DNA of 64,000 nt, from the NCBI RefSeq assembly GCF_041886205.1, contig NZ_CP169029.1; one strand, 5' to 3'. Below, piece after piece: positions 41,771 through 44,700 of the stretch (position 1 is its first letter; each line of letters begins with the position of its first letter). The stretch is from Escherichia coli. Its GTDB lineage: Bacteria > Pseudomonadota > Gammaproteobacteria > Enterobacterales > Enterobacteriaceae. The position numbers are program-made.

Positions 41771-44700
41771 GGAATGTTCATCTTGTGCTGCTGCACGGAT
41801 GGGGACTGAATGCCGAAGTGTGGCGTTGCATTGACGAGGAACTTAGCTCGCATTTTACGCTGCACCTTGTTGACCTGCCCGGCTTCGGGCGTAGCCGGGG
41901 ATTTGGTGCGCTGTCACTTGCTGATATGGCCGAAGCCGTGCTGCAACAGGCACCTGATAAAGCCATTTGGTTAGGCTGGAGTCTGGGCGGGCTGGTGGCA
42001 AGCCAAATTGTTTTAACCCATCCCGAGCGTGTTCAGGCGCTGGTCACCGTGGCGTCGTCACCTTGTTTTAGTGCTCGTGACGAGTGGCCGGGGATAAAAC
42101 CGGACGTGCTGGCGGGATTTCAGCAGCAACTCAGTGATGATTTTCAGCGTACAGTGGAGCGGTTCCTGGCGTTACAAACCATGGGGACTGAAACGGCGCG
42201 CCAGGATGCGCGGGCGTTGAAGAAAACCGTTCTGGCGTTACCGATGCCGGAGGTTGACGTGCTTAATGGCGGGCTGGAAATCCTGAAAACGGTCGATCTC
42301 CGTCAGCCGCTGCAAAACGTGTCCATGCCGTTTTTGCGATTGTATGGCTATCTCGACGGTCTGGTGCCGCGCAAAGTGGTGCCGATGCTGGATAAACTTT
42401 GGCCTCACAGCGAATCATATATCTTCGCCAAAGCGGCCCATGCGCCGTTTATTTCGCATCCGGTCGAGTTTTGTCACCTGCTGGTGGCGTTGAAGCAGAG
42501 GGTGTAGGCAACTTTTGAAATGGCGAGACAGAAATTTACTGGCTCGCCGCAGCCAACTCTTCTTCTGACACCCCGGTAAAGCGCATGATGTCTGTAAGAG
42601 GGACTCCGGATTCAAGCATTATTTTGGCTATATGCAGGGCTTTGGATTGTTCCCCCTCCTGCCGCAATCTTTCCGCAATTGTCATTAAACTCTCCTTGTG
42701 TTTCGGTGAACGTTCGGCAACGCCGTCGATAAAATCGTTAAAACGTACCGCGTCGCCGGTTTGCAGTATGTAATTAAACAGCCCTTTGATTTGTCTGTCA
42801 TTAGCGTATCCACTACTTAATAAGCAGGCCATTTGCTCTACCAGCCCCATCAGATCGCGTTGACGAATATGTTTTTGAATTAACTCCAGCAGCGCCATAC
42901 GTCGGTGCTGCATGATTTCATCATCAGGCATGACGGTGACATCAATCAGCGGAAATGCGGAGGCATAAAGCTGCCTTGCCAGTTTGGGATCGGCGAAACA
43001 ATCCAGCCAACACAGCGAATAGGGATAGGGGCTTTCAATACCGTGGTAAAACAACAATGGCACCACCATCGGCAACGTTTTGTATCCAGCATCAAGGTGA
43101 TTTTGCATTGCGGCAATAGCGTAACGCATCATGCGAAATGCGATCAGTTTGTTTGAGGTGCTTTGATGTTCAATCAGACAATAGATGTATCCTGGTCCTT
43201 GTTCCGTTTTCACCGACCACAGCACATCGGAATAGCTTTCACGCAGATCGTCATCAATAAAGCTGCTCGACTCCAGCTTGAGGGTTTTCATATCACAAAG
43301 CGCGTGAATGGGTGCCGGTAAATGAAACGCAAGAAAATCACGAGCCGTGTCCGGTTGGCGTAAAAAGAGTTTGAACAGCGCATCGTGTGGGGTGGAACTC
43401 TGCTTTTTGCTCATGGCGTTCCTTCACCTGTTGTTTGAATGCCGCGACTCTACGCGCCACTCCACACCTGTGTATTAGCGAGTTTTCATCCCTGCGAGAT
43501 GCTTTCAAAGGAACTTACGCCGTGCTGCAAGAGTTGCATTTTTATGGAAAGCCGCACGCAAAAAAGCCCGGATGCAGACGCATACCGGGCTTTCCAAAAC
43601 AGGCGATGGAGTAAGGTTAACGCAGCGCCCACCACTCGCGCAGACAGGCTTTTCCTTCCGGGCAGCTTTTACAACTGCCAGAGAGGCAGCCGTCAGGTTC
43701 TTCCTGAATCCGCACGGCTTTGCCCATACTTTCCAGTTGTTGCAGCATGGCGTTAATCATTGGCTGTGGAGTGTTCAATGTCTGGCTTATCTGGGCCGCT
43801 TCCATACGGCCCCGTAACGCCAGCAAATCGCGCACCTGAATAAGTGAAGCCATTAATGGCAATCACCGGTGGTGCTGGCTGCGCAGCAACTGCTTACCGA
43901 CTTGCGGGTTGCCAGCAGTTCGATATCCACCCGGCTACGCGCGCGGCGCAGCAGACCGATAACCACGATGTTAAACAGGATAACCGCCAGAATGCACACC
44001 AGGCTGTAAGTTGGATGCTGACTGTAGCTGGCGACCTGATAGAACAATGTTGCCAGTGAGTAAGCGATATTCAGCCCCCACAGGATGGAGAAGCCCATCC
44101 AGCCACGGCTTGATTCACGGGCGATAGCCCCCATCACCGAGATACATGGTACATACAGCAGGACGAAAATCAGGTAGCTGTAAGCTGCTGCTGCGCTACC
44201 GAATTTCTGATCCATCACGCCCATCGCCCCGGTACCCATTTCGCCGTCGCCTTTGCTGGCTTCAATGGGGTTCATCAGTACGCTAAGGCTGAAGGTGTCT
44301 TTCAGGCTCTGCCAGGTTTCATCTATCGCACTGAACAGCTCTTCACCGAGGTTAAATTCTGCCGGATTGAACTCTTCGTCCTGAATATTTTCTGCGGTGT
44401 AGAGGGTGTTGAGCGTACCCACTACCACTTCTTTCGCCATGGCACCTGTAAACAGGCCAACCGTTGCCTGCCAGTTATCTTCATGCACGCCAATTGGCTT
44501 GAAGACCGGGGTGATCACCCGGCTGACGGACGCCAGCGCCGAGTCGTTGATGTTATCGACGATTTTCCCGCTCAGCGAGAAGCTGTTGAAAGCGCTCAGG
44601 AAAATGCTGACGATGATGATCACTTTACCAGCACGCAAAACGAAGCCTTTCAGACGCTGCCAGGTCTGGATAATCAGGCTTTTAACGTGTGGTACATGAT

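Follow-up and report, generated by a model that had tools for sequence, protein, structure and literature searches.

The 292 aa open reading frame (ORF) at 42536..43414 on the minus strand of the window, a 64,000 nt stretch of Escherichia coli contig NZ_CP169029.1, is the already characterised E. coli gene rpnA (yhgA), and there is nothing new in the present copy. It is almost certainly a chromosomal gene-within-gene toxin-antitoxin module, in which the full-length product, RpnA_L, is the nuclease and the internally encoded product, RpnA_S, is the antitoxin. The ORF is assigned to this known type of module on the basis of profile matches, synteny, identity to the K-12 protein and an internal antitoxin start. 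The identity of the gene, the intact catalytic residues, the internal Shine-Dalgarno (SD) sequence and ATG, the near-identity to an antitoxin of solved structure and the absence of transposon ends are all read here from the sequence. The gene, its enzymology, the internal antitoxin and the crystal structure of the antitoxin have been published previously. The value of the present analysis lies in the annotation, where RpnA_L and RpnA_S should appear as two overlapping products in the same frame and "transposase" should no longer serve as a label.

Identity and context of rpnA

The original prediction placed a full-length 292 aa ORF at 42536-43414. The ORF listing of the window contains a single long ORF at this position, starting with ATG, and also supplies the orientation on the minus strand, which the prediction had omitted. 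The naming of the gene as rpnA/yhgA and of its product as a PD-(D/E)XK nuclease of the PF04754 family was likewise upheld by profile matches, synteny and 99.3% identity to K-12 RpnA. The features of the full-length gene are as follows.

42536..43414, minus strand: rpnA full-length CDS (292 aa and stop codon), predicted to encode RpnA_L, a PD-(D/E)XK DNA endonuclease toxin; from profiles, comparison with K-12 and the annotation of identical E. coli genomes.
42788..43393, minus strand: Transposase_31/YhgA-like domain region (Pfam, residues 8-209), which holds the nuclease core; coordinates converted by hand from residue numbers.
43382-43384, minus strand: codon for D11, identical to K-12; R94 and D165 are likewise kept.
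43163..43228, minus strand: PD-(D/E)XK active-site codons from D63 to Q84 (D63, E82 and Q84), identical to K-12.
42569..42595, minus strand: codons that differ from the K-12 protein, T274 (42593-42595), where K-12 has A, and V282 (42569-42571), where K-12 has L; from the pairwise K-12 comparison and the alignment to PDB 7TH0.

The predicted protein matches Pfam PF04754 (Transposase_31, YhgA-like) over residues 8-209, covering positions 1-202 of the 203 in the profile (E=1.5e-91; 305.9 bits against a threshold of 21). Against the NCBIfam equivalog NF007361, "recombination-promoting nuclease RpnA", it scores 695.1 bits over residues 1-292 of 292, where the cut-off is 583. Given these two matches, the ORF is far above chance. 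A secondary NCBIfam match, to NF007418 ("ISNCY family transposase"), scores 414 bits and falls under its cut-off of 583.

Upstream of rpnA on the minus strand is feoC (43617..43862), which is preceded by feoB. On the other side lies bioH (41737..42507, plus strand), which is convergent with rpnA and separated from it by 28 bp, and the rpnA-bioH pair has been included among convergent "excludon" candidates (PMC12288877). With a 1.4 kb query around rpnA, matches were obtained in 5424 of the 5426 complete E. coli genomes, many at 100% DNA identity, and the 100%-identical chromosomes annotate rpnA between bioH and feoC. The MG1655 record has rpnA (b3411) in the same position and of the same length, and rpnA was always found between bioH and feoC in the genomes sampled, confirming an orthologous position. 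In a 41 kb annotated stretch of the identical strain MSI001, the surroundings of rpnA are ordinary core-genome genes (glp, rtc, mal, gntT, nfuA, gntX, bioH, rpnA, feoCBA, yhgF, greB, ompR/envZ and pckA).

The window protein shares 290 of 292 residues (99.3%) with K-12 RpnA (YhgA, b3411) [NP_417870.1], which has the same feoC-rpnA-bioH locus, the same length of 292 aa and the same internal SD and ATG at M244. Relative to NC_000913.3, the window allele has 8 nucleotide differences, every one of which falls in the 3′ third of the gene (nt 561 to 873). Two of these changes alter the protein (A274T and L282V), both inside RpnA_S, and the other 6 are synonymous; the N-terminal 273 residues are identical to those of K-12. 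The 202 bp feoC-rpnA spacer is also identical, and 4 of 28 bases are changed in the rpnA-bioH spacer. Residues D11, D63, E82, Q84, R94, D165, K240, E241 and M244 are all retained in the comparison with K-12. The identification as rpnA passed both the profile and the synteny tests, and no observation spoke against it.

K-12 RpnA is a Mg2+-dependent, Ca2+-stimulated DNA endonuclease, and mutagenesis has established that D11, D63, E82, Q84 and R94 are needed for its activity (Kingston et al. 2017, PMC5350276). Mutations in RpnA residues abolish or alter the recombination, toxicity and SOS phenotypes as well as nuclease activity in vitro, and D165A makes the protein hyperactive (PMC5350276).

The internal gene rpnA_S and its expression signals

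Each in-frame ATG, GTG and TTG codon of rpnA was inspected together with the 20 nt upstream. The sole in-frame candidate with a canonical ribosome binding site (RBS) is the ATG at 42685 (M244), which is preceded at a distance of 6 nt by AAGGAG. SD strength was then expressed as the energy of pairing with the 3′-end of 16S rRNA for the 68 NTG codons, whatever their frame, in the rpnA region. The sequence before M244 is the strongest of the 68 at -8.5 kcal/mol, and the annotated start of the full-length gene has -5.7 kcal/mol. The features of the internal gene and the signals around both starts are listed below.

42536..42685, minus strand: rpnA_S, in-frame internal gene (M244 to Q292, 49 aa and stop codon), predicted antitoxin with a three-helix bundle dimerisation domain; function from K-12 (PMC10400941).
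42692..42697, minus strand: internal SD AAGGAG, separated from the internal ATG by 6 nt and overlapping codons K240 and E241.
42766..42801, minus strand: candidate internal sigma-70 promoter for a short rpnA_S transcript, with -35 ATGACA (42801-42796), a 17 nt spacer and -10 TTTAAT (42778-42773).
43420..43425, minus strand: SD-like GAAGGA, which precedes the ATG of RpnA_L by 5 nt; at -5.7 kcal/mol its pairing is weaker than that of the internal SD.
43558..43596, minus strand: feoC intrinsic terminator and upstream boundary, a GC-rich hairpin AAAGCCCGG...CCGGGCTTT followed by a T-run; comprises a terminator-like site at 43579..43566 and arms present in the repeat listing.

The original prediction noted that some Rpn family members include a small internal antitoxin-like ORF, and such an ORF is indeed found here, with the in-frame ATG at 42685, its own strong RBS and a product that matches a known structure. 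The predicted RpnA_S is identical at 47 of 49 positions, over its whole length, to the 49-residue chain named RpnA in PDB 7TH0 (E=2.3e-22), the single PDB entry matched. Four divergent E. coli alleles were aligned, and neither the SD nor the ATG varies among them. The window rpnA, as judged from its sequence, thus carries an internal RBS and start that encode the known antitoxin RpnA_S.

M244 has been validated as an internal translation start in K-12 (Zhong et al. 2023, PNAS, PMC10400941). There, the chromosomal substitutions K240R, E241D and M244L alter both the SD and the ATG and abolish RpnA_S; RpnA_L made without RpnA_S (RpnA_L*) inhibits growth and strongly cleaves DNA (PMC10400941). In vivo RpnA_S stops the induction of SOS, and in vitro it stops cleavage; an RpnS protein acts on its cognate RpnL only, and the crystal structure of RpnA_S is a dimeric three-helix bundle (PMC10400941).

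A Pfam search with the 49 aa and 84 aa C-terminal pieces, at E values up to 10, did not return DUF4351 (PF14261), and the matches obtained (LPD23 and FumaraseC_C) were sub-threshold noise. Tandem repeats were also absent from the gene, and the window allele therefore lacks the four-amino-acid repeat expansion. In this respect it differs from the RpnL/RpnS family, in which tandem dodecamer (four-amino-acid) repeats occur.

The transcription start site (TSS) predicted for the candidate internal promoter lies near 42766, at 648 nt within rpnA, and the internal ATG follows some 80 nt later. It is the top position weight matrix (PWM) site on the minus strand of 42536-43700, with a score of 12.3 against 12.2 for the 95th percentile of shuffle maxima, and is to be regarded as borderline since the score just equals that percentile. 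Its sequence is unchanged in K-12 and in AR_0104, a strain that carries a deletion in the gene. Differential RNA-seq reportedly places a TSS inside every rpn gene, the short transcript being commoner than the full-length one (PMC10400941). For the paralog rpnB, the internal TSS of strain EDL933 was measured at 650 nt within the gene. The predicted site agrees with these internal TSSs and with that of rpnB in particular (648 versus 650 nt), and is a suggestive candidate for the rpnA_S promoter.

A strict consensus promoter scan of 42300-43900 returned zero promoter-like sites. Upstream of the full-length start, a permissive PWM scan gave no convincing promoter, the best site scoring 7.25, which is below noise. 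The lack of a credible full-length promoter and the weaker SD fit the report that RpnA_L is undetectable when expressed from its native locus in K-12 (PMC10400941). At the feoC terminator, which is a clear one, the feoABC operon ends and rpnA is insulated from its read-through. A hairpin that spans the rpnA stop codon was not significant as a terminator (z = -1.6). In an Rfam search of 41500-44500 (E up to 1), the Burkholderia sRNA Bp2_287 was matched over the feoC terminator with 24 bits against a threshold of 70, and this sub-threshold match was taken as chance.

Transposase annotation, mechanism and role

The names "Transposase_31" and "ISNCY family transposase" would make rpnA an active or recently active insertion-sequence transposase, a reading with next to no probability. 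It draws on legacy names only, namely the PF04754 description "Putative transposase, YhgA-like" and the sub-cut-off match to NF007418, and the ends and copy number of the gene speak against it. The two 260 bp ends of rpnA were examined for repeats, with 300 shuffles as the control. The best inverted match between them has a score of 8, a value equalled by 168 of the 300 shuffles, and the longest direct repeat between the flanks, which might have represented a target-site duplication (TSD), is 8 nt and was equalled by 163 of 300. Neither terminal inverted repeats (TIRs) nor a TSD above chance are present at the ends of rpnA, and the repeat listing near the gene contains short scattered pairs only. 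The statement in the original prediction that flanking inverted repeats could not be found is thus borne out by the shuffle-controlled scan.

A second copy of rpnA was not found when RpnA was compared with the whole window using tblastn. In the 5424 of 5426 E. coli genomes that match the rpnA query, the median number of places is one, and the chromosomal site is the same. Moreover, the ends of rpn regions vary, and the fold is not known from any autonomous transposase (PMC10400941). With no TIR, no TSD, no second copy and a single chromosomal site, the transposase reading is effectively refuted. Rpn proteins are considered very unlikely ever to act as transposases, and the family is without TIRs or TSDs (Zhong et al. 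2023, PMC10400941). The same observations (no repeats, one copy and a fixed site), with which Zhong et al. agree, leave the term "domesticated" in the original prediction without an evidential basis; together with "related to transposases", it reflects legacy annotation and is not supported. TnsA of Tn7 has the PD-(D/E)XK fold in common with RpnA (PMC10400941). However, rpnA differs from TnsA and from IS elements in having no TIRs, TSD or partner transposition proteins and in occupying a single fixed chromosomal site.

For the toxin-antitoxin module, the following mechanism can be proposed, in which nuclease activity, toxicity and neutralisation by RpnA_S are presumed to carry over from the 99.3%-identical K-12 protein. 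RpnA_L (292 aa) would be a Mg2+-dependent, Ca2+-stimulated PD-(D/E)XK DNA endonuclease with little sequence specificity, and if unrestrained would damage the chromosome and lead to SOS induction. The internal promoter and RBS (AAGGAG, 6 nt before the ATG at 42685) would allow the C-terminal 49 residues to be made on their own, as RpnA_S, and in larger amounts. The three-helix bundle of RpnA_S would then bind RpnA_L via the helix common to both and block the nuclease. Suggested triggers for the release of RpnA_L are alkaline pH or a phage factor. The substitutions A274T and L282V, which lie in the antitoxin and oligomerisation domain, and the borderline internal promoter, missed by the strict scan, weigh against a simple transfer of this functional reading to the window allele.

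The physiological role of chromosomal rpnA may be anti-phage defence, though this is less certain. Measured phage protection has been reported for the plasmid paralog RpnP2 only, and not for RpnA. PADLOC 2.0 gave no match for either RpnA_L or RpnA_S, though its library may predate the work on Rpn. The gene is also outside any defence island, as its neighbours are core genes (feoABC, bioH, gntX, nfuA, mal and ompR/envZ). The failure to detect RpnA_L from its own locus in K-12 (PMC10400941) likewise speaks against the defence role.

Two other roles have been weighed. RpnA may mainly promote recombination, making rare double-strand breaks whose 3′-OH ends prime RecA-independent joining of incoming DNA, so that the nuclease serves horizontal acquisition and RpnA_S tunes it. 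Overexpression of RpnA raises RecA-independent recombination, catalytic mutants lose the recombination effect, the toxicity and SOS induction together, and the cleavage products have 3′-OH ends that a polymerase can use (Kingston et al. 2017, PMC5350276); the core-genome context of rpnA, away from any defence island, is also in keeping with this role. The phenotype nevertheless requires overexpression, from constructs that co-expressed RpnA_S unknown to the authors, and native RpnA_L is undetectable (PMC10400941). In addition, about 10% of complete E. coli genomes are without the nuclease core and give no sign of compensation. Recombination as the main role is considered unlikely.

The undetectable native RpnA_L (PMC10400941) could point to an addiction-type toxin-antitoxin module that is purely selfish, or to what is left of one as it decays; either would be of no benefit to the host, inherited vertically only and slowly lost. 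The 569 of 5426 complete genomes that are without a 437 bp nuclease-core segment yet keep the antitoxin unit, and an IS1 insertion in at least one strain, would be consistent with such decay. Against this, about 85-90% of genomes have an intact full-length ORF, and the catalytic residues are all kept in the window allele. The differences from K-12 are concentrated C-terminally and the 6 others are synonymous, a pattern compatible with purifying selection on the nuclease, and a paralog gives measurable phage protection. A purely selfish or decaying module appears distinctly improbable. The recombination role and the toxin-antitoxin mechanism are not mutually exclusive. Either this role or the purely selfish one may apply, and neither is at odds with the molecular mechanism.

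The toxin-antitoxin organisation of rpnA is paralleled in the E. coli paralogs RpnB-E and the plasmid-borne RpnP2. These have the same PF04754 nuclease domain and a variable C-terminal tail that is separately translated from an internal start, and each RpnS neutralises its cognate RpnL only (PMC10400941). RpnP2 differs from RpnA in that its protection against phage has been demonstrated. RpnC and RpnE can carry an extra downstream RpnSs gene, whereas the window allele is without one. Classical type II toxin-antitoxin systems, which consist of two adjacent genes (e.g. YhaV-PrlF), likewise have a protein antitoxin that is in excess and inhibits a protein toxin. In contrast to these, rpnA has no separate antitoxin gene: the toxin's own C-terminal domain, produced from an internal start in the same frame, serves as antitoxin, and toxin and antitoxin must consequently co-evolve.

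Forms of the rpnA locus among E. coli genomes

The rpnA locus was surveyed in 5426 complete E. coli genomes, and three forms were distinguished. Form (a), the form of K-12 and the window, is found in the majority of genomes.

Form (b) is a 297 aa allele present in 854 genomes (15.7%), and the C-terminal tail, which is different in these 854 genomes, is the variable part of rpnA across E. coli. The sequence diverges past M244, immediately after RQEG, into FQKGIRTNALNIAKTMLDAGVSLEDVLRFTSLTVEDLAEINHQ. Beyond the new tail, a second SD and ATG begin a 32 aa ORF containing three to four 12 nt repeats. Its stop codon, TAA, stands in the place of the GAA (E269) of the window, and what comes after it is the old tail, no longer in use. 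As far as its sequence goes, the arrangement resembles that of rpnS with a downstream rpnSs described for rpnC and rpnE. This suggests that the K-12/window form may have arisen by fusion of the nuclease domain to the downstream antitoxin copy; such fusion events are mentioned only generically in Zhong et al. (PMC10400941).

In form (c), which accounts for 569 genomes (10.5%), the 437 bp segment 42901-43337 is missing. In the one example aligned, the deletion is out of frame and all codons of the nuclease core are gone, while RpnA_S stays intact, together with its ATG, SD and candidate internal promoter.

The three forms could represent a polymorphism kept by selection, in which the window form is perhaps a recombinant fusion to RpnA_Ss, a second form has a different tail and a truncated Ss, and an orphan antitoxin form is perhaps immune to incoming RpnA-type toxins. 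This proposal is speculative and more probably wrong than right by some distance. If true, A274T and L282V in RpnA_S would be part of a specificity drift.

In another 195 genomes, coverage of the 437 bp segment is below 80%. In one strain, an IS1 element is located within the matched rpnA region, which is annotated as rpnA, a second partial Rpn family CDS and an IS1A transposase.

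Deleted and apparently interrupted forms of rpnA

The features of rpnA (yhgA), which encodes a PD-(D/E)XK endonuclease toxin, are:

42536-43414, minus strand, rpnA, 292 aa (RpnA_L)
42766-42801, minus strand, candidate internal promoter
42536-42685, minus strand, RpnA_S, a predicted 49 aa antitoxin starting in frame at M244, preceded by AAGGAG

A 437 bp segment of rpnA (window 42901-43337) has no match in 569 of the 5426 complete E. coli genomes searched. The structure of the deleted form was read from a single aligned example, NZ_CP020116.1 (positions 40399-44039 compared with the window), in which an out-of-frame deletion has removed the entire PD-(D/E)XK core. 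In this example, the deletion spares the candidate internal promoter, the AAGGAG and ATG, and an intact RpnA_S reading frame, and because these are retained the remnant, which is annotated as a pseudogene, is predicted to be antitoxin-only.

In strain CP131_Sichuan, the entire query is matched at 100% identity, in two pieces spread over approximately 2.2 kb (NZ_CP053720.1, 364913-367090). Besides rpnA, an IS1A transposase and another, partial CDS of the Rpn family are annotated in this region. Judging from the two-piece match and the transposase annotation, rpnA appears to be interrupted in this strain.

An allele with a different C-terminal tail

A 297 aa allele was found in 854 (15.7%) of the 5426 genomes, represented by:

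NZ_CP195436.1, 1500-1900, example of the 297 aa allele, tail junction at approximately window 42652

Immediately past ...RLRQEG, the C-terminal tail of this allele changes to a sequence different from that of the window. A second Shine-Dalgarno sequence and ATG lie 3′ of the new tail, followed by a 32 aa ORF that includes 12 nt (four amino acid) repeats and has its stop codon at the position of E269 in the window. The configuration looks like rpnA_S followed by a degenerate rpnA_Ss, the additional downstream short antitoxin copy described for rpnC and rpnE, and hints that the K-12/window allele originated by fusion of the nuclease domain to the downstream copy.

Divergence from K-12 and the flanking regions

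Mismatches with K-12 MG1655 were counted per 250 bp over 10 kb. The feoC/feoB side (window 42935-44434) has zero differences over 1.5 kb, and the count then rises to 11 per 250 bp in window 42435-42934, which spans RpnA_S, the 28 bp spacer and the end of bioH. Onward, on the bioH/gntX side, there are 0-10 differences per 250 bp. This pattern suggests that a recombination boundary lies within rpnA, that the antitoxin region is unusually diverse, or that both are the case. The top local divergence of the 10 kb, 25 mismatches in 250 bp, is at window 46685-46934, assigned by position to the feoA-yhgF intergenic and regulatory region.

rpnA and bioH are convergent, with stop codons only 28 bp apart (window 42508-42535), and PMC12288877 lists them among its candidate 'excludons', in which convergent transcripts overlap. 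The sole hairpin at this junction (window 42538-42557) extends across the stop codon of rpnA, but with z = -1.6 it falls short of significance. Upstream of rpnA, a sub-threshold Rfam match to the Burkholderia sRNA Bp2_287 (window 43462-43595, minus strand; E=0.013, 24 bits where the gathering score is 70) covers the terminator of feoC together with the 5′ region of rpnA. This match to the terminator hairpin most likely arose by chance.
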